A stretch of DNA of 64,000 nucleotides from Armatimonadia bacterium (GTDB lineage Bacteria; Armatimonadota; Zipacnadia; Zipacnadales; UBA11051): the NCBI GenBank assembly GCA_039683575.1, contig JBDKRC010000243.1, positions 1 through 64,000 of the forward strand. Reading direction: 5' to 3'. A program made the translations under genes and the position numbers. Every line of letters begins with the position of its first letter. Position 1 is the stretch's first letter. Under the pieces are notes generated by a model that did not search any database, had not been told where the DNA came from, and saw nothing but the letters and a program-made list of their open reading frames with translations. Of this stretch, positions 2,500 to 8,381 are shown piece after piece.

Positions 2500-5118
2500 A
2501 TGCCCCTGCTTCGCCTCCTGCCCGCCCTGCTGCTGTTTGCCGCCTCCGCCCCGCTACTTCACGCGAATGACACCGGCCTGAAGTCCCACCCGTGTGTGCT
2601 CATCAACGCCAAGACGCTGAAGGCCCTGCGCGAGAAGTGCCGTGACGCCAACCCCAACCGCTTTGGCTTCAAAACCGCAGACTCCTGGGCCGCGATCAAG
2701 GAAAGAGCCGACAAGCTTGCCGCAGCGCCAACCTATAGCTATGCCGTCAACTGCCCCGGCGAGGGCAATGTCACCCTCGACCGCTTCGAGTACACCCTTT
2801 CCGATCAGACCCCGCCCCGCCACGACAAGAGTCCGAATTACCCGCCCTGGACGGCCATGTTTCAGGAGCGCTCGGACAGTATCACCACTCGCCTGGTTCA
2901 CTTCAGCTTTGCCTATCTGGTCACGGGCGACCAGCAGTACTTCGACAAAGCCAAAGAAATCGCCCTGCACCTTACGCACTGGGATCAGTGGACTGACCCC
3001 AGCTACGGTGCCGGGGCCCTGAAGTGTTGCCTCGATACCGGCCACTGCACCTATGCCATGGGCATGTTCTATGACTGGTGCTATGACAAGCTGAGCGAGG
3101 CTGAGCGAACTCAGGTGCGCGAGGCAATCATCAACAAGGGCATCCTCGCCGCTCTGGGCGGTGTGGATCGTTACGCCCCAGATACTAACGGTTACGCCGT
3201 CATCCTCTCCGGCGCGGGCCTCGCTGCCCTGGCTGTACGCCCCGAGGACCCCCGCGCGGGCGAGTGGCTGCAGGCCTGCCTCGACAAAACGGTGGTCTCC
3301 CTCGACCGCGGCGGCAAGGACGGCGGCCCCTTCGAGGGCCCGGGGTATGGAACGTACCTGCTCGATTCGTTCGCGCTCTTCTTCGACGGTCTCGTCTCGG
3401 CCCAGGTCGAGCACAAGCTCTTTGAGCATCCCTACCTCGCGACCATGGACCGTTACTGCATCGGGCTGCTCTCCCCGGACACTAAGCAGATCCCGTGCTT
3501 TTCCGACGGTAGCCCCAGTGTCGCGGTCCCCAAGCTCATGAACATCCTCGCCCAGCGCGGCAGCACCGACGCCGCCTGGTATCTCGAGCAGATCAGCGCG
3601 ATTGAGCCTGAAAGCATATACGACTTCATTCGCTTCGACGAGAGCAAGCTCAAGCCCGCGCAGCCCACCTGGATACCCTCCTCCGTCTTCTACGACATCG
3701 GCCACGCCTCCCTGCGAGATGGCTTCAATGCCAAGGCGCCGACGCTATACCTGAAGTCGGGCCCCTACACCAACAGCATCGGCCACAACCACTTCGACCA
3801 CAACTCCTTCGTGATCAGCTACGGCGGGCAGTGGATCATCCCCGACCGGGGGTACCACAACTTCTATGTGCCAGAGAAGCGCAAGTTCAGCCTCGGCAGC
3901 CTCGGCCACTGCACCATCACGATGGACACTGACGATACCTACTTCACGAACCACAAGGTCCCATACGCCGGCAGCGAGCAGGTTAAGGTCACCGGTGGCC
4001 GGATTGTAGACTTCTTCGGTGGCAAGCGCTTTGACTTCGTGAAGGGCGAGGCAGCCGAGGCGTACAACACGAACCAACTCAAGGTATTGGACCGCTTCGA
4101 CCGCAGCATCGTGTACCTCAAGCCCCACATGTTCATCATCCGCGACCAGCTTGAGGCCCCCAAGCCTCATCGCTACAACTTCATGCTCCACACCGACGGC
4201 AACGGTGAGATAGTGCAGCAGGGCGAGGTCTTCTTCGTTAACCGCGGCAATGGCCAGGTATACACACAGATCACCTCACCCGCCAAGCTGACCCCGCACA
4301 TCCAGACGTACCCTGGCGCCGAGAACTACGGCCAGTTCCTGCGGATGGAGACCGAGCCGGTGGCCAAGACCAGCTTCCTGACCGTCCTCTATCCTCGCCC
4401 CTTCGCAAGCGAGAACTACCTGCGCAACGGTGGCTTCGAAAAGGGCATGACCGGCTGGACGCCCCGCGCTGCTGAAGACCTGCCGAACCACAAGATCGAG
4501 ACCGCGGGGATGGCCGAGGGCAAGCAGTGCGCCAGCATCGAAAACAGCGGCTACTACTACTCGGAGCGGTTTGGCCTGCCGGTCGGCACCACCCTCACCG
4601 CCCGGGCCCAGGTCAAAACCACGCCGCTTCCCCAGGGCAAAGGCGCGAACATGACCTTCCACTTCTGGAAGGCTGGCAAGGCCTTCGCCAGCAAGCACGT
4701 CGGCCCGTTCGCCGACGAGGACTGGACCGAGCACGAACTCGTGGCCCAGGTGCCCGAGGGAACCGAGCAAGTCTCGCTCGCCCTGGAGTTCGCCGCCCCG
4801 GGCAAGGCGTGGTTTGACGACGTCCGCCTGGCCACCGATCTGCCCGTCCCCGAGGCCCTCACGCCGCAGATTCGGCAGCTCGGCCCGGAGGCGCTCGACG
4901 TCACGGTTGGCGCCGACCGCTTCCTCGTCAGCTTCGGCACCCCCGGCGAAACCCGCAAGGTGGGGGAGATGGAGACCGACGCCGAGTTACTGGTGGTGAC
5001 GCTGGATAAGGCCGGAAAGCCGGTGCGGGTGTTCATGGACAAAGGCACCCGTGCCCTCTACCAGGGCCGCAAGCTGGTCGTCACAGACAAGCCCTCGACA
5101 GCCGAAACGGAACTGTAG
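2500..5118 (+). CDS. Secreted heparinase II/III-like polysaccharide lyase with a CBM4/9-like domain
   Basis: Signal peptide; HPxVL start; GHNHFDHNSFVISYGGQWIIPDRG heparinase II/III motif; NYLRNGGFE...WFDDVRL jelly-roll module. Confidence 0.8.
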   Translation: MPLLRLLPALLLFAASAPLLHANDTGLKSHPCVLINAKTLKALREKCRDANPNRFGFKTADSWAAIKERADKLAAAPTYSYAVNCPGEGNVTLDRFEYTLSDQTPPRHDKSPNYPPWTAMFQERSDSITTRLVHFSFAYLVTGDQQYFDKAKEIALHLTHWDQWTDPSYGAGALKCCLDTGHCTYAMGMFYDWCYDKLSEAERTQVREAIINKGILAALGGVDRYAPDTNGYAVILSGAGLAALAVRPEDPRAGEWLQACLDKTVVSLDRGGKDGGPFEGPGYGTYLLDSFALFFDGLVSAQVEHKLFEHPYLATMDRYCIGLLSPDTKQIPCFSDGSPSVAVPKLMNILAQRGSTDAAWYLEQISAIEPESIYDFIRFDESKLKPAQPTWIPSSVFYDIGHASLRDGFNAKAPTLYLKSGPYTNSIGHNHFDHNSFVISYGGQWIIPDRGYHNFYVPEKRKFSLGSLGHCTITMDTDDTYFTNHKVPYAGSEQVKVTGGRIVDFFGGKRFDFVKGEAAEAYNTNQLKVLDRFDRSIVYLKPHMFIIRDQLEAPKPHRYNFMLHTDGNGEIVQQGEVFFVNRGNGQVYTQITSPAKLTPHIQTYPGAENYGQFLRMETEPVAKTSFLTVLYPRPFASENYLRNGGFEKGMTGWTPRAAEDLPNHKIETAGMAEGKQCASIENSGYYYSERFGLPVGTTLTARAQVKTTPLPQGKGANMTFHFWKAGKAFASKHVGPFADEDWTEHELVAQVPEGTEQVSLALEFAAPGKAWFDDVRLATDLPVPEALTPQIRQLGPEALDVTVGADRFLVSFGTPGETRKVGEMETDAELLVVTLDKAGKPVRVFMDKGTRALYQGRKLVVTDKPSTAETEL

Positions 5119-5146
5119 CGGCCCCGCAGCCCCTGAAACCGAAGCC

Positions 5147-5180
5147 AAAAAGGCCCCGCCAGCATGCTGGCGGGGCCTTT
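5147..5180. terminator. Bidirectional intrinsic terminator
   Basis: Perfect palindrome AAAGGCCCCGCCAGCATGCTGGCGGGGCCTTT; the U tract is longer on the minus strand. Confidence 0.85.
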
Positions 5181-5412
5181 GCCATATCTGAATAGCGCCG
5201 AACTCGCCCCTATTTGTGTCTCAGCCGATTTCCTTTGGAGGTGATCCTCCTGTGACCCGGCTACATCCTCGGGTCCCTTTTAGAAATCAGTCGGCCAAGA
5301 CGGGGCGAGCTCGGCTCCGATGTTTGGTTTTGGGTCTAATATGTCTCAAAGCACCTCACTCTTAGAGACGTCTACGACCTAGATTGTCCTCAGTTTTCCT
5401 TGTGTTTCTTTC
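5147..5412 (-). ncRNA. Putative structured small RNA of unknown family
   Basis: TATAAT upstream, terminator downstream, nested stems (5197-5210/5302-5315; 5218-5228/5291-5301) whose mismatches are G-U pairs only on the minus strand; no convincing ORF. Confidence 0.6.
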
Positions 5413-5418
5413 ACTATC

Positions 5419-5446
5419 ATTATACCCGCAAACGCGCTCCTGCAAA
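5419..5446 (-). promoter_or_regulatory. sigma70-like promoter pointing into the putative sRNA
   Basis: Perfect TATAAT (5424-5419); weak -35 TTTGCA/TTGCAG 15-16 nt upstream. Confidence 0.55.
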
Positions 5447-5680
5447 CCAGAATCAGACGCTTTCCCGCCCTGGCTTCCACGCGTTGCGGCGACGCCCGAT
5501 GCACCGGAGGGGCGGCGCTTTTCCCGACGGCAGAGGCCTGCATTCTGCCGGTGGTAATCGGCGAAGGATCACCACTTATTACACGGTCTGGAGCCACAGA
5601 ATCAGTCATTGCCGGATTCCCCTGTGCCTTACTCACGGCCTATCCTTAGGTGTCGCAAAGCATAGTAGGAGGAGCTAACC

Positions 5681-6391
5681 ATGAGAATTCGGTATATTCT
5701 GATTACGGTGGTCGCCTTGTCGTTGCTGGCCGGCCAGGCCTTCGCGGACTACACGTGTTCGCAATGCGGGAAGGTCAAGCACACGGCGACATGCCCCACC
5801 CAGACCATGATGCTGTGCCCCACCGCCTCGTCGGTGTGTCCTTTCAGTCTGACGATCGTGGAACCAACGTCCGCAGGTGAATCCGGCGCCAGTTGCGGCT
5901 ACTCTGTCCGAGGCGCGGGCAGTTCCTTCTTCACCGCTCTGAAGCAAGATCACCACGAGATCCTGAAGCAGATGGACATGATCTCCAAACAGCCCTGCGC
6001 TTCCGCCGAGAGCTGGGCTAGCCTGAAGACGGTTCTACTGCCCCACGTGAAGGCAGAGGAAACGGCCTTCTATCCGACGCTGATGCAGATCGCCCAGACA
6101 CAGCAACAGGCTGCCATACGCGTGCAGGAGCATGCGGCAGCGGCAGCCATCATTGCGAACCTCGACGCGATGCCGGTGACCGACTGCCGGTGGATGCCGA
6201 GTTTCGCCGTTCTGCGCAGGGTGGTTTCACAGCATATCGCCGATGAGCAACACGACACCTTCCCGATGGCACGCGCAGCACTCGCGGAGATACCATTCTG
6301 CTCGATCTACACGAACTACGCGATGGAGCGCCAGTCGGTGCTGACAGGGATGTCGAGTGAGATCACAAACAACGCGAACACCAGCAAGTAA
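5681..6391 (+). CDS. Exported hemerythrin-like (HHE) domain protein with Cys-rich N-terminal segment
   Basis: Signal peptide ending AFA; LKQDH...HVKAEETAFYP...EH...HIADEQ pattern; SD AGGAGG. Confidence 0.8.
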   Translation: MRIRYILITVVALSLLAGQAFADYTCSQCGKVKHTATCPTQTMMLCPTASSVCPFSLTIVEPTSAGESGASCGYSVRGAGSSFFTALKQDHHEILKQMDMISKQPCASAESWASLKTVLLPHVKAEETAFYPTLMQIAQTQQQAAIRVQEHAAAAAIIANLDAMPVTDCRWMPSFAVLRRVVSQHIADEQHDTFPMARAALAEIPFCSIYTNYAMERQSVLTGMSSEITNNANTSK

Positions 6392-6442
6392 CGCCAGCGG
6401 CGAGTAAACCGCTGCCAGGGGGGCCGCCTCCCACTGGAAGGC

Positions 6443-6483
6443 AAAGAGCAGGTCAAGCCAACATAGGCTTGACCTGCTCTTTT
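6443..6483 (+). terminator. Intrinsic terminator
   Basis: 17-bp stem AAAGAGCAGGTCAAGCC/GGCTTGACCTGCTCTTT ending in a T run. Confidence 0.85.
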
Positions 6484-6594
6484 GTGTCGGCCAGGGGCTT
6501 CTCAGACCCTCTATGCGCCTCGGCAGGCCGGGCGACAGCAGGGATTTGAGCGCTGCGGCGGGAATTTGTTTACCAACTACCTGCGGAGAGTGAT

Positions 6595-7332
6595 ATGGCA
6601 CAACGAATCTGTCCCCGTTGCCACAGAGAGCAGCCTGACACCGCACAGGGAGACAAGTGTCTGTTCTGCGGTGCCGATCTGACCGAGCCTGCTGCAGCAA
6701 CGCCGCCGGTGGCCCCGGCCGCACCCCTGGCCTCCGGTCTACCGGTAGTGGTCAGCCCGGGCAAGCGCGAGTGCCCCAACTGCCACGAGATTCTCTACGA
6801 CACCGAGCGCCGCTGCTGGCGCTGCGGCCATGAGTTTGATCCGTCTCCGAAGCTACCCGAACCTCCGCCGGCCCCACCGGTAGAGGCCATGGTGTCTGTG
6901 ACGCCGCCTGCACCTCCCGCCCCCGAGGCGCCCGTGACTGCCCCGCCCGAGGCCGCCGCCGCACCGACTGCCCCGCCTGCCGTGCCATATGTCGCCACGG
7001 CCCTGCCGCCGTCTCAGCCCAATGAGGGCCAGACTCTCGGTACCTGGGCGCTGGTGGTGTCGCTCTTCAGTTTCTGCTGCCCCGTCCTCGCCAGCATCGC
7101 CGCCATCTACCTGGGCTCGAAGGCTCGCGCTAAGGGCGCTACCAGCACTGGAACAGCCGCCGTCGTGCTCGGCACCATCACCCTCGTGATTGGCGGCATA
7201 CTCGGCCTGCTCCTGATCATTGGTATGATCTTCGGCGATCAGACTGAACAGACCAAGTCAGACAGCAGTCTCAGCCCGTGGGCACCTGTACTGGTCTGCT
7301 GCGCCCGCGCTTTGATTAGGAGCCTCACATGA
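6595..7332 (+). CDS. Double zinc-ribbon, Pro-rich, DUF4190-like membrane protein
   Basis: CPRC..CLFC and CPNC..CWRC; Pro/Ala linker; two TM helices (ALVVSLFSFCC...AIYLG). Confidence 0.75.
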   Translation: MAQRICPRCHREQPDTAQGDKCLFCGADLTEPAAATPPVAPAAPLASGLPVVVSPGKRECPNCHEILYDTERRCWRCGHEFDPSPKLPEPPPAPPVEAMVSVTPPAPPAPEAPVTAPPEAAAAPTAPPAVPYVATALPPSQPNEGQTLGTWALVVSLFSFCCPVLASIAAIYLGSKARAKGATSTGTAAVVLGTITLVIGGILGLLLIIGMIFGDQTEQTKSDSSLSPWAPVLVCCARALIRSLT

Positions 7333-8381
7333 TCTGGCTTACAGCCATGCTTGGGTTGGTGGCCGCCACCGCCGGTCTCGCCGCTCCACCGGCGCTACCC
7401 CCGCCCGCCGTCGAGGAGCAGTCCCCCGCGCTTGAACAGCTTGCGTCCGACGCCGCCCGTCCCGCGTGGGGCCCGGTTGCGGTCCTGCGTGGCCACCGCG
7501 AGCTACTCCCCCTGCTGAAAGCCGCTGCGGCCTCTCCGGAAGCCCTCCGGCGCCAGCGTGCCATGTTTGCCCTGGGGCAACTCGGGTCCCCGGCGAATGC
7601 CGCCCTGCTGCGCAAGAGCCTTCACGACCACGACAAGCTCACGCGCCTGAATGCTGCTGTCGCCCTCTGTAGTATCGGCGACGCCATAGGCCTCCCCGGC
7701 GCTGCCGTGGCGCTACGGTACGGTCCCGACTGGCTGCGCTTCTATGCCCTGCATGCCCTGTGGAAGCTGGACACCGCCCGCTCCCGCGAGGCTCTCCGCG
7801 ACAGCCGCGACTTCCTCTCGCCCTTCCTGCAGGAGACCCTGAAAGGCGCCCTGGCAGCCCGGCCGTCCAGAGCCGTGACGGCCCTGCCTGCGCCCGTGTG
7901 CTCGGTCGCTACCGGATCATTGCATGAGGCGTGGCTGGGGATTGCAGATCTTCTCGTCGAGGAATCCGACTTCTGGTGGCACAAGGGTGATTATGAGCAG
8001 TGTATCCGCTGCCAGGAGACTGCGCTGTTCTTCGATCCCAACTACGTGGACCTGTACAGCAATGTCGCCTGGCTGCAGTGGAGCATGGGCCGCCATGGCC
8101 AGGGCATAAGCACCTACCGCCGCGGCATCGCCGCCAACCCGAAATCCTGGGAAGCGTACCACGCCCTCGGGCAGTACTACGTTTTGCGCAAGCAGCCCTC
8201 GCTGGCCCTCCCCCTCATGCAGCAGGCCGCCAGCCTCGGCAGCCCCGCCGTCCCGCGGCGCCAGTTGGGCCATGTTCTTGAGCAGCTTGGCCAGAAAGCC
8301 GCAGCCGACCGGGTCTGGCGGGACATTCTCAAGCTCGACCCCAACGACCCGATCGCTCGCCGCCACCTGGGTTGCCAGTAG
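7329..8381 (+). CDS. Secreted HEAT-repeat and TPR protein
   Basis: RQRAMFALGQLG and RLNAAVAL HEAT-like repeats; TPR-like DPNYVDLYSNVAW and NPKSWEAYHALG; ATGA overlap with the upstream gene. Confidence 0.8.
   Translation: MIWLTAMLGLVAATAGLAAPPALPPPAVEEQSPALEQLASDAARPAWGPVAVLRGHRELLPLLKAAAASPEALRRQRAMFALGQLGSPANAALLRKSLHDHDKLTRLNAAVALCSIGDAIGLPGAAVALRYGPDWLRFYALHALWKLDTARSREALRDSRDFLSPFLQETLKGALAARPSRAVTALPAPVCSVATGSLHEAWLGIADLLVEESDFWWHKGDYEQCIRCQETALFFDPNYVDLYSNVAWLQWSMGRHGQGISTYRRGIAANPKSWEAYHALGQYYVLRKQPSLALPLMQQAASLGSPAVPRRQLGHVLEQLGQKAAADRVWRDILKLDPNDPIARRHLGCQ

Follow-up and report, generated by a model that had tools for sequence, protein, structure and literature searches.

A probable new family of structured small RNAs at one syntenic locus in an order of the Armatimonadia

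In the window (the whole stretch of DNA analysed, 64,000 nucleotides of a contig from an Armatimonadia bacterium), an earlier note made from the letters alone had proposed that the minus strand encodes an unannotated, structured non-coding RNA (ncRNA) equipped with a promoter and a terminator of its own, and this raised the question of whether the locus holds the gene for a new RNA family and what such an RNA might do. The proposal was strongly supported by a conserved promoter, a fixed position and covarying helices in 23 genomes, and we put the probability that positions 5145-5412 are the gene for a genuine new structured ncRNA family at about 85%, judging from sequence comparison. On the best reading of these data the product would be a novel small RNA of ~270 nt, transcribed from its own unit and working through its structure. 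Armatimonadota are nearly all uncultured, and a full-text literature search found no lineage-specific ncRNA described for them, the literature retrieved being without the word Armatimonadetes.

Predicted transcription unit and fold

Each element of the anatomy originally proposed (TATAAT, leader, 5' stem-loop, rod, two hairpins and terminator) was found in place, and the elements are given here in window positions, in order of transcription after the whole unit.

5145..5412, minus strand: whole predicted ncRNA, ~268 nt, with the 5' end placed ~7 nt past the -10 hexamer and the 3' end in or after the U tract
5441..5446, minus strand: -35-like hexamer TTTGCA from the promoter scan, within a conserved GGTTTG motif of which GGTTT is kept in homologues
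5419..5427, minus strand: GGG and the TATAAT -10 element, with TATAAT at 5424-5419
5316..5412, minus strand: 5' domain of A-rich leader, hairpin and C/A-rich linker, differing in structure across lineages
5333..5379, minus strand: 5' hairpin GGUC..GUCUC/GAGAC..GACC, from the minimum-energy fold
5352..5357, minus strand: purine-rich GAGGUG motif, Shine-Dalgarno-like as read from sequence
5302..5315, minus strand: 5' strand of P1, GCCGAGCUCGCCCC, with a CUCGCCC core near-invariant in family f1
5291..5301, minus strand: 5' strand of P2 (11 bp), equal to P2a + P2b of homologues
5229..5286, minus strand: tip, where P3 (UUUCU/GGAAA) closes a three-way junction whose joining strands are A-rich in the predicted fold
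5254..5275, minus strand: hairpin A, GACCCG/CGGGUC with loop AGGAUGUAGC, present in all homologues, its sequence not conserved
5237..5250, minus strand: hairpin B, GGAGG-AUCA-CCUCC, which covaries
5218..5228, minus strand: 3' strand of P2, pairing with 5301-5291
5211..5217, minus strand: 3' bulge ACAAAUA of 7 nt, matched in homologues by an A/C-rich bulge of 4-11 nt
5197..5210, minus strand: 3' strand of P1 (14 bp), GGGGCGAGUUCGGC
5147..5181, minus strand: terminator hairpin (perfect palindrome) and UUUUU, from sequence and fold, with a core of 12 G-C pairs at 5179-5152 and the UUUUU at 5151-5147

The promoter, arranged as TTTGCA-16-TATAAT on the minus strand, was the sole sigma-70-like site found in a scan of 4900-5900 (10/12 matches, shuffle mean 0.2). 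The homologues carried the same arrangement, with GGTTTG followed after ~16 nt by GGGTAT(A)AT or GGGTATAAT; of the 12 homologues aligned, 11 retained GGGTAT. At the other end, the hairpin at 5181-5147 was not flagged by a simple consensus terminator scan; it shows an opposite-strand self-match at 5149-5180 and sits 30 nt beyond the stop codon of a convergent plus-strand gene, and it could act for both strands, ending the ncRNA as well as the convergent transcript. The 3' ends of homologues varied, from a GC hairpin of its own with U6 in G003, through a hairpin with no U run after it in the G002 group, to only a U-rich tract past P1 in several members from genera g3 and g4. From these features we infer that the ncRNA would be transcribed from the minus strand from ~5412 and would end at the terminator at 5181-5147. 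Contigs from four public runs (three of them metatranscriptomes) that fall on 4000-6800 covered the flanking genes and left out 5147-5453; these are assembled contigs and the palindrome would break assemblies, so they are uninformative on expression, strand and ends.

Tested as a riboswitch or 5' leader, the element had no regulated gene downstream on its own strand: in both the window and G002 the next gene 3' of the ncRNA runs convergently, and a terminator and separate promoter stand between ncRNA and dnaK in G003. Read as the message for a small protein, it held no conserved open reading frame across the genera compared, with a 14-codon frame in genus g4 alone, another frame in g3 and no AUG in g1 or g2, and the transcript is probably non-protein-coding.

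The whole unit was predicted to fold at -118 kcal/mol (z = -8.0), with 0 of 200 shuffles folding as well, and in the rod a CUGA bulge separates P2 from P3. The rod alone reached z = -7.6, compared with -5.4 for the opposite strand; the rods of G003 (-5.5), G002 (-4.0) and G004 (-3.1) each, like that of the window, folded as well as or better than the opposite strand. All three non-Watson-Crick pairs of P1 and P2 read as G-U on the minus strand, as had been claimed, and P3 has one more.

Homologues and their genomic address

BLAST with the window RNA against 60 relatives and its own genome returned only terminator-like matches of 30-45 nt, in G011 and G028, and a single-sequence covariance model (R1) gave nothing below E 0.5 in the 60 relatives; run unfiltered on syntenic loci, it weakly flagged G002 with 9.9 bits. 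Homologues in G002 (syntenic), G003 and G004 were recovered individually, and a two-block pattern, CTCGCCCCG..GGGCGAGTT, matched 4/67 genomes of the order, compared with 1/67 for the reversed control. A later model, R3, found a single full-length match per genome in 12 of the 16 genomes of the family, and three further copies were located next to the HEAT/TPR gene described below. With iterated covariance-model searches the ncRNA was found in 23 of the 79 genomes of the class, one copy each: 15 of the 16 genomes in the family to which the window belongs, plus at least 8 in two sister families (f6, with four copies and one in a fifth genome cut by a contig end; f5, with three). G000 had a single copy by BLAST and two models, and relatives likewise gave one match per genome. 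Two metagenome contigs also carried the ncRNA, among 11 loci matched by a three-block pattern; the other nine loci had nothing in common beyond the pattern blocks. The family thus has at least 25 members, in three families of one order, at one syntenic locus.

Several candidates were rejected. The pattern matches at G019:C86 and G026:C88 were chance occurrences in coding-looking DNA, and the matches of model R2 in G016 and G041 and of R3 in G040 and G060 were judged false, being coding-looking and without promoter or fold. Beside the HEAT/TPR gene, neither R3 nor a rough scan for inverted repeats gave a convincing copy in nine f4 loci or in one locus each of f5 (G019), f7 and f2. G001, of the same genus and 90% complete, has no copy and a different gene in that place, and the copy in G015 carries an internal deletion, so the ncRNA can evidently be lost.

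The locus is constantly placed: the ncRNA diverges from a conserved gene pair (zinc-ribbon and/or HEAT+TPR). The genes around it in the window are as follows.

2500..5118, plus strand: heparinase II/III-like protein of 872 aa (Pfam), the convergent neighbour in G000 and G002 only
5681..6391, plus strand: hemerythrin-domain gene between the ncRNA and the zinc-ribbon gene, absent from that place in G002, G003 and G004
6595..7332, plus strand: double-zinc-ribbon protein whose C-terminal part is hydrophobic, the divergent ncRNA neighbour in G002, G003, G004 and family f6
7329..8381, plus strand: HEAT + TPR protein, hydrophobic at the N-terminus, conserved as divergent neighbour of the locus

The zinc-ribbon/DUF4190 gene directly adjoins the ncRNA in G002, G003, G004 and f6, and was not found, in a search with one query, in the ncRNA carriers G008, G006, G009 and G024. 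The HEAT+TPR protein, the only universal neighbour, looks secreted from its sequence; it was considered as an RNA-binding partner and judged unlikely in that role because of its signal-peptide-like N-terminus.

This address raised an alternative in which the element works in cis, as a transcript or DNA structure that tunes the back-to-back promoter of the zinc-ribbon/HEAT-TPR genes or as a large bidirectional terminator or insulator. In three families the element invariably lies divergent to the zinc-ribbon and/or HEAT+TPR genes, P1 with the U tract is terminator-like, and the window terminator may be shared with the convergent gene. The G-U pairs and the conserved promoter, however, indicate an RNA that is read away from the operon, and the ncRNA is retained where the hemerythrin gene intervenes between it and the operon. 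The downstream neighbour also differs among genomes, being heparinase-like, dnaK or only weakly GHL10-like, with matches under Pfam's own cut-off, and gene order conserved within one order may reflect plain inheritance. We regard a cis-acting role as improbable.

Conservation of the helices

In an alignment of 11 sequences, 89.5% of cells were paired compared with 79.1 +/- 1.2 in shuffles, and 15 of 34 pairs had changed on both sides compared with 10.6 +/- 1.6, with 0 of 500 shuffles reaching either value, these counts not being probabilities as the sequences are related; slid controls of the same alignment gave 32-53% paired and 2-8 both-side-changed pairs. Across 18 genomes, after two junk rows had been dropped from the count, 472/543 cells were canonical and 26 of the 34 pairs were compensatory, compared with 9-13 when slid, in an alignment which, like that of the 11 sequences, was fitted to the model's structure and so favours pairing. 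Among these compensatory changes was one from U-A to C-G in the P1 core (11 vs 6). A MAFFT alignment unfitted to any model, analysed with RNAalifold on 10 sequences, had compensatory changes at 12 of 38 pairs. Other MAFFT alignments (A3, A5, A8 and A12) misplace the window sequence within the rod, RNAalifold on A12 returning P1 only, and alignment A11 was left out, having four opposite-strand rows.

Among four close sequences, variable columns were concentrated in unpaired regions (46/111, compared with 15/128 in paired; Fisher p = 1e-7). When 21 rods were folded singly, 17 reproduced the rod and its two tip hairpins exactly, three had an extra small hairpin and one a different tip. Hairpin B appeared as GGAGU/ACUCC, GGAGA/UCUCC, GGAAGA/UCUUCC, GAGAG/CUCUC and GGGGC/GCCCC. 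The structure of the 5' domain was not conserved across lineages; the f1 and f6 homologues had a RGGAG(G)UG motif, related to the window's GAGGUG, ~35-45 nt ahead of P1, and at the same place the three f5 homologues had purine runs only (GGGAAG in G024, GGGGGGAG in G034 and G038). In g3 and g4 the GGUG of this motif may pair with CACC immediately 5' of P1.

These data also bear on the proposal that the element has no function as RNA and is a chance palindrome, a MITE or an integron attC-like site. Long imperfect inverted repeats are found in such elements, and both strands of the locus fold well. Against this, there is one copy per genome at a syntenic locus in 23 genomes, and compensatory changes keep the helices as the sequence diverges; the arms also differ from the attC end consensus, and no integrase was seen in the annotated part of the neighbourhood. 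We give this explanation scarcely any weight.

What began as a guess from a single sequence is now a family of at least 25 members with a usable covariance model; its consensus fold has more than 20 covarying pairs and its genomic address is fixed. The data suffice for an Rfam submission and for probe design. Good folding, a strong promoter and retention in three families make the RNA a good candidate for a function that depends on structure, such as that of a ribonucleoprotein component, decoy or sensor; we know of no RNA biology of these kinds in Armatimonadota.

Relation to known RNA classes and possible modes of action

The statement in the earlier note that the RNA belongs to no known family held for both the window and the homologues. 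Rfam 15 at gathering score gave 0 matches in the 64-kb window, and none was found at E <= 0.1 in 10 homologue loci. A permissive scan of 5050-5750 returned 16 matches with E values of 0.68-8.5 and scores of 12.8-19.6 bits, compared with gathering scores of 37-82, most of them on the terminator hairpin.

The same note had offered two identities for the RNA, neither of which fared well. The first was a divergent 6S-like RNA, which would be a second RNA of this type binding the RNA polymerase holoenzyme. The ncRNA shares with 6S RNA (RF00013) a roughly 200-nt size class, an elongated, rod-like helical shape and a strong promoter of its own of the kind that serves abundant RNAs. 6S RNA is defined by a large two-sided central bubble between closing and terminal stems; the ncRNA lacks this bubble and has instead a one-sided 3' bulge of 4-11 nt, small internal loops and a branched tip with a three-way junction. 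RF00013 had no match in the region up to E = 10, and a search of the genome for another 6S locus found the canonical RNA at C254:1058-1254 (66 bits), making a second 6S-type RNA here highly improbable.

The second identity was a sponge that titrates CsrA/RsmA, like CsrB and RsmZ, which are also stand-alone small RNAs with GGA motifs. The genome does encode CsrA (PF02599, 77 bits, at C44:54610-54762), and the reported count of eight GGA motifs in the window RNA, one of them in the hairpin-A loop, was correct. The motif is, however, not enriched, since shuffles contain 6.45 on average and 30% of them reach eight (P = 0.30), with 4.5 expected from genome frequency. Known CsrA sponges expose many GGAs in loops, whereas most of the remaining GGAs here are in stems, and the AGGAUG loop of hairpin A is not conserved, the corresponding loops of homologues being mostly without GGA and those of hairpin B varying too. 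Titration of CsrA is accordingly very improbable.

A base-pairing small RNA, possibly Hfq-dependent, would target mRNAs with either its RGGAG(G)UG strand or its C/A-rich linker, the rod serving mainly as stabiliser and terminator. Like classical small RNAs, the ncRNA has a promoter and a predicted terminator to itself, Hfq is encoded in the genome (59 bits), the purine-rich motif holds a constant place in f1 and f6 and more weakly in f5, and P1 followed by a U-rich tract resembles the 3' end of such RNAs. Yet a three-way-junction rod with more than 20 compensatory pairs exceeds the needs of seed pairing, and the purine-rich motif may itself be partly paired with nucleotides ahead of P1. We consider seed pairing unlikely as the main mode of action.

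Covarying helices with drifting loops are the pattern of structure-dependent RNAs and not of seed-pairing small RNAs. Because the helices of this family covary while its loop sequences drift freely, the ncRNA may act in trans by virtue of its shape, a scaffold or decoy for proteins being the likeliest role, and we favour a protein-binding mode tentatively, at somewhat less than even odds. Recognition would then involve the P1 helix, which is conserved in sequence (GAACUCGCCC/GGGCGAGUUC), together with the purine-rich RGGAG(G)UG strand.

Two further known RNA classes resemble the ncRNA in part. The large signal recognition particle RNA (RF01854) has the same topology of 5' hairpin(s) followed by a long hairpin-like rod, and a length of ~270 nt; neither SRP model (RF00169 or RF01854) matched in the region, though, and no conserved loops of the helix-8 type were recognised when the ncRNA was compared by eye with the features of SRP RNA. 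The SRP RNA of the genome lies at C63:35534-35799 (165 bits with the large form, 66 bits with the small form). Bacterial Y RNAs are encoded beside rsr, whose product type, Ro60, is a HEAT-repeat ring, and the ncRNA is likewise a stem-rich small RNA adjoining a gene for a helical-repeat protein. Here, however, that neighbour, a HEAT_2 + TPR protein, has a signal-like N-terminus and lacks a Pfam match to the TROVE domain, the rod is not built from the 5' and 3' ends of the RNA, and no Rfam Y RNA matched.

It is also possible, with a lower probability than for protein binding as such, that the ncRNA represents a new complex-folded class specific to this order of Armatimonadia, either the subunit of a novel ribonucleoprotein or a catalytic or ligand-sensing RNA. 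In that case a defined tertiary fold would arise from the A-rich three-way junction, and the invariant P1 would be where a protein docks. If true, the ncRNA would belong alongside OLE or raiA-type RNAs, the biology of which emerged only over years. OLE and raiA-motif RNAs are orphan complex-folded bacterial ncRNAs, both in Rfam. The present RNA differs from them in having no Rfam match and is far smaller than OLE, and the zinc-ribbon gene was not found in four carriers as described above. It resembles them in being lineage-restricted, single-copy and longer than 200 nt, with a covarying multi-helix fold, its own predicted transcription unit and a function not obvious from context. OLE lies next to the gene for its membrane-protein partner, and the ncRNA, similarly, often adjoins the gene for a membrane-anchored zinc-ribbon protein.

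Anatomy of the predicted RNA

The RNA interval lies within a 562-bp gap separating two plus-strand genes, and the whole anatomy listed in the earlier note (TATAAT, A-rich leader, 5' stem-loop, rod, two hairpins, and a terminator with U tract) was found on the minus strand.

Features of the window around the RNA
2500-5118, plus strand: heparinase II/III-like gene, one flank of the gap
5681-6391, plus strand: hemerythrin-domain gene, other flank of the gap
5446-5441, minus strand: -35-like TTTGCA, 16 nt upstream of TATAAT
5424-5419, minus strand: -10 TATAAT (sequence and promoter scan)
5' part of the RNA, minus strand: A-rich leader (read from sequence)
5379-5333, minus strand: 5' hairpin (sequence)
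Rod, minus strand: P1 of 14 bp, 7-nt 3' bulge, P2 of 11 bp, CUGA bulge, P3 of 5 bp (sequence and fold)
Rod tip, minus strand: three-way junction with hairpins A (GACCCG/CGGGUC) and B (GGAGG/CCUCC) (fold)
3' end, minus strand: GC-rich hairpin, a perfect palindrome, then UUUUU at 5151-5147 (sequence and fold)

TTTGCA/TATAAT was the only sigma-70-like site in 4900-5900 (10/12 matches, shuffle mean 0.2). The GC-rich palindromic hairpin before UUUUU (5151-5147) was not among the calls of a consensus terminator scan. The region is 53% G+C, compared with 63.5% genome-wide, and a 274-nt stretch of it folded at -118 kcal/mol (z = -8.0), with none of 200 shuffles equally good. As expected of a hairpin-rich region, the plus strand of this stretch folded almost equally well (z = -7.9); for the rod alone the values were -7.6 on the minus strand versus -5.4 on the plus strand. 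The three non-Watson-Crick positions in P1 and P2 are all G-U on the minus strand, as first noticed from the sequence, and one more such pair lies in P3. Open frames inside the window RNA on its own strand all stay below 40 codons.

Homologues and their transcription context

BLAST of the window RNA against 60 relatives returned terminator-like fragments only and a single-sequence covariance model found no relatives, and it was synteny of the heparinase-like gene that gave the way to the first homologue. G002, from the same genus, carries an orthologue of this gene at 70% identity. Immediately downstream of that orthologue the unfiltered model made a weak match (9.9 bits) on the convergent strand, which on reading of the sequence was a clear homologue. 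Its promoter layout is that of the window (GGTTTC..GGGTAGAAT versus GGTTTG..GGGTATAAT), its P1 strands are the same (CUCGCCCC / GGGCGAGUU), its hairpin B is altered on both sides (GGAGA/UCUCC) and its terminator hairpin stands at the same place. A three-block pattern then matched 11 metagenome loci, two being further G002-like copies and nine chance matches. BLAST with the G002 copy found one in G003 (81% identity), where a distinct terminator of its own (hairpin and U6) closes the RNA and dnaK follows, and a model of four of these sequences found a copy in G004, from another genus.

R3, a covariance model of the rod built from six sequences, made exactly one full-length match per genome in 12 of the 16 genomes of the window's family (f1). 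An unfiltered search beside the HEAT/TPR gene, one of a conserved pair divergent from the RNA, placed a copy in three of the other four; at this locus in G001 there was no copy, a different gene occupying its place. Among the 79 genomes of the class, R3 added four of family f6, and the unfiltered search adjoining the HEAT/TPR gene added three of f5 and the copy of a fifth f6 genome, cut by a contig end. Beside the HEAT/TPR gene nothing convincing was seen at nine f4 loci or at single loci of f5 (G019), f7 and f2. Carriers thus number at least 23 of 79 genomes, plus two metagenome contigs.

The G015 copy (locus L073, 440-520) is internally deleted: just 81 nt separate its P1 strands, and hairpin B, the 3' half of hairpin A and the P2 3' strands are missing. 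Either this is a true deletion variant or the assembly is at fault.

Both sequence and spacing of the promoter are kept across homologues, with GGGTAT in the -10 region of 11/12 aligned copies and a GGTTT -35-like motif present in most. The downstream neighbour varies (the convergent heparinase-like gene in the window's genome and G002, dnaK in G003, other genes elsewhere) while RNA and promoter are retained, and in an 18-genome alignment G-U pairs outnumber A-C mismatches. Together, these three observations argue for a predicted independent minus-strand transcription unit.

The form of the promoter (GGTTTG, about 16 nt, GGGTAT(A)AT; window 5419-5446 and homologues) is unusually conserved and includes an invariant GGG abutting the -10 hexamer; it may be a lineage-specific promoter element. 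The adjoining spacer (5454-5622) is matched by a 171-nt contig in one metatranscriptome run, with 11 differences and an end at 5454, just upstream of the -35, suggesting that the community also contains a related strain.

In genus g4 a 14-codon frame follows the purine-rich motif, with a different frame in g3 and no AUG in g1 or g2, and we treat the RNA as putatively non-coding. The g4 frame (M-E/Q-x-x-I/V-T-x-N-S-P-G/R-L-P/Y-R-stop) runs from the Shine-Dalgarno-like motif into P1 and is kept in four g4 genomes (loci L064, L065, L063 and L067).

Compensatory change in the rod

When 21 rods were folded singly, 17 gave exactly P1, 3' bulge, P2a, internal loop and P2b, topped by a two-hairpin junction, three gained one small hairpin and one (G020) had a different tip. 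The helices persist across widely differing sequences: hairpin B occurs as GGAGG/CCUCC, GGAGU/ACUCC, GGAGA/UCUCC, GGAAGA/UCUUCC, GAGAG/CUCUC and GGGGC/GCCCC, P2b as CCGA/UCGG, GUCGGUG/CACCGGC, CCCGAUG/CAUCGGG, CCCGCA/UGCGGG and CCGGC/GCCGG, and the P1 core as CUCGCCC/GGGCGAG in f1 and CCCGCC/GGCGGG in f5 and f6.

As model-fitted alignments are biased towards structure and the sequences are related, shuffle counts are not to be read as probabilities; with this proviso, in 11 clean rows aligned to R3, 89.5% of 351 cells were standard pairs (shuffled 79.1 ± 1.2; 0/500 reach this) and 15 of 34 pairs were altered on both sides (shuffled 10.6 ± 1.6; 0/500). Sliding the partner by 1-3 columns as a control left 32-53% paired and 2-8 both-side-changed pairs. 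A custom-script count over 18 genomes of three families, two junk rows having been dropped, gave 472/543 canonical cells and compensatory types in 26 of 34 pairs, against 9-13 when slid. Ten full-length g3/g4 RNAs aligned by plain MAFFT without model fitting returned the same helices in RNAalifold, with 12/38 pairs compensatory. Variable columns in the four closest sequences were 46/111 unpaired versus 15/128 paired, for a structure derived from that same alignment. The predicted rod structure is thus conserved by compensatory change.

In G014 (L072, 1750-1885) the 3' strand of the P1 core reads GGGCGGG in place of the otherwise invariant GGGCGAG, turning a U-A pair into U-G, an intermediate towards the C-G of f5 and f6.

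Known families, candidate function and neighbourhood

Across the whole 64-kb window no Rfam 15 family matched at gathering score. A permissive scan of 5050-5750 gave 16 matches (E 0.68-8.5), all far under gathering scores and mostly on the terminator hairpin, and ten homologue loci gave nothing at E <= 0.1. The genome check proposed in the earlier note, for csrA and another 6S locus, found both.

Known RNAs and RNA-binding protein genes of the window's genome
Contig C254, 1058-1254: canonical 6S RNA (66 bits)
Contig C63, 35534-35799: large SRP RNA (165 bits)
Contig C44, 54610-54762: csrA
Contig C27, 90695-90880: hfq

The RNA has no detectable similarity to 6S, SRP, Y or CsrB-type RNAs, and with the canonical 6S elsewhere, the suggestion of a divergent 6S-like RNA is very improbable. 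A CsrA/RsmA sponge, suggested from eight GGA motifs, fares no better: the count was right, but there is no excess over composition, same-composition shuffles averaging 6.45 and 30% reaching 8. OLE and raiA-motif RNAs are orphan complex-folded bacterial RNAs, and the window RNA is alike in kind without detectable similarity to either. In the portion of the literature consulted, no paper was found tying Armatimonadetes to structured RNA motifs; supplements of motif-discovery papers could contain an unnamed equivalent. The proposal of an unannotated structured minus-strand ncRNA is supported by conserved promoter, covarying fold, single copy, fixed locus and lack of an Rfam match, and we rate it as a new family of a familiar kind, the stand-alone structured bacterial ncRNA. 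A covariation-backed fold spanning an order of an under-studied phylum is of moderate-to-high relevance to RNA biology.

Loops and joining strands drift or remain merely A-rich, whereas helices are held by compensation, and sequence conservation is limited to the P1 core and a purine-rich RGGAG(G)UG strand (in f5 a purine run only). As helices are compensated, loops drift and little sequence is conserved, we infer that the RNA would be stable and trans-acting, with a shape-dependent function; a non-functional stretch is very unlikely. Such a pattern would be a better fit for RNAs that bind protein or act as scaffolds than for sRNAs that pair through a seed, and a putative protein-binding scaffold or decoy RNA is our leading reading, at a probability of roughly 35-40%. 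A base-pairing regulator of the Hfq type is unlikely, since covarying helices with drifting loops suit seed pairing less well. Other roles, such as ribozyme or sensor, take up the remaining probability.

The RNA is always divergent from a conserved gene pair.

Conserved pair in the window
6595-7332, plus strand: double-zinc-ribbon protein with hydrophobic tail
7329-8381, plus strand: HEAT+TPR protein

In g3 and g4 the RNA directly adjoins the HEAT+TPR gene, with HEAT and TPR domains in 6/6 upstream frames scanned. The predicted N-terminus of the HEAT+TPR protein looks like a signal peptide. Its gene is single-copy in 66/79 class genomes, a far wider distribution than that of the RNA. The query used found no zinc-ribbon gene in four carriers of the RNA (G008, G006, G009 and G024). 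The linkage may therefore be a matter of gene order passed down by descent, or of joint control of the back-to-back promoter region, and it does not identify a partner. A role in cis at the divergent promoter, or as terminator or insulator, is improbable.

In the window the hemerythrin gene lies between RNA and pair; it is missing there in G002, G003 and G004. No orthologue of it was found in the 15 family genomes searched, and the only matches, at 27-28% identity, were in two genomes of another family. Contig depth, a poor measure of expression, was 388 and 35 for this gene in two metatranscriptome runs, compared with 5-16 for its neighbours.
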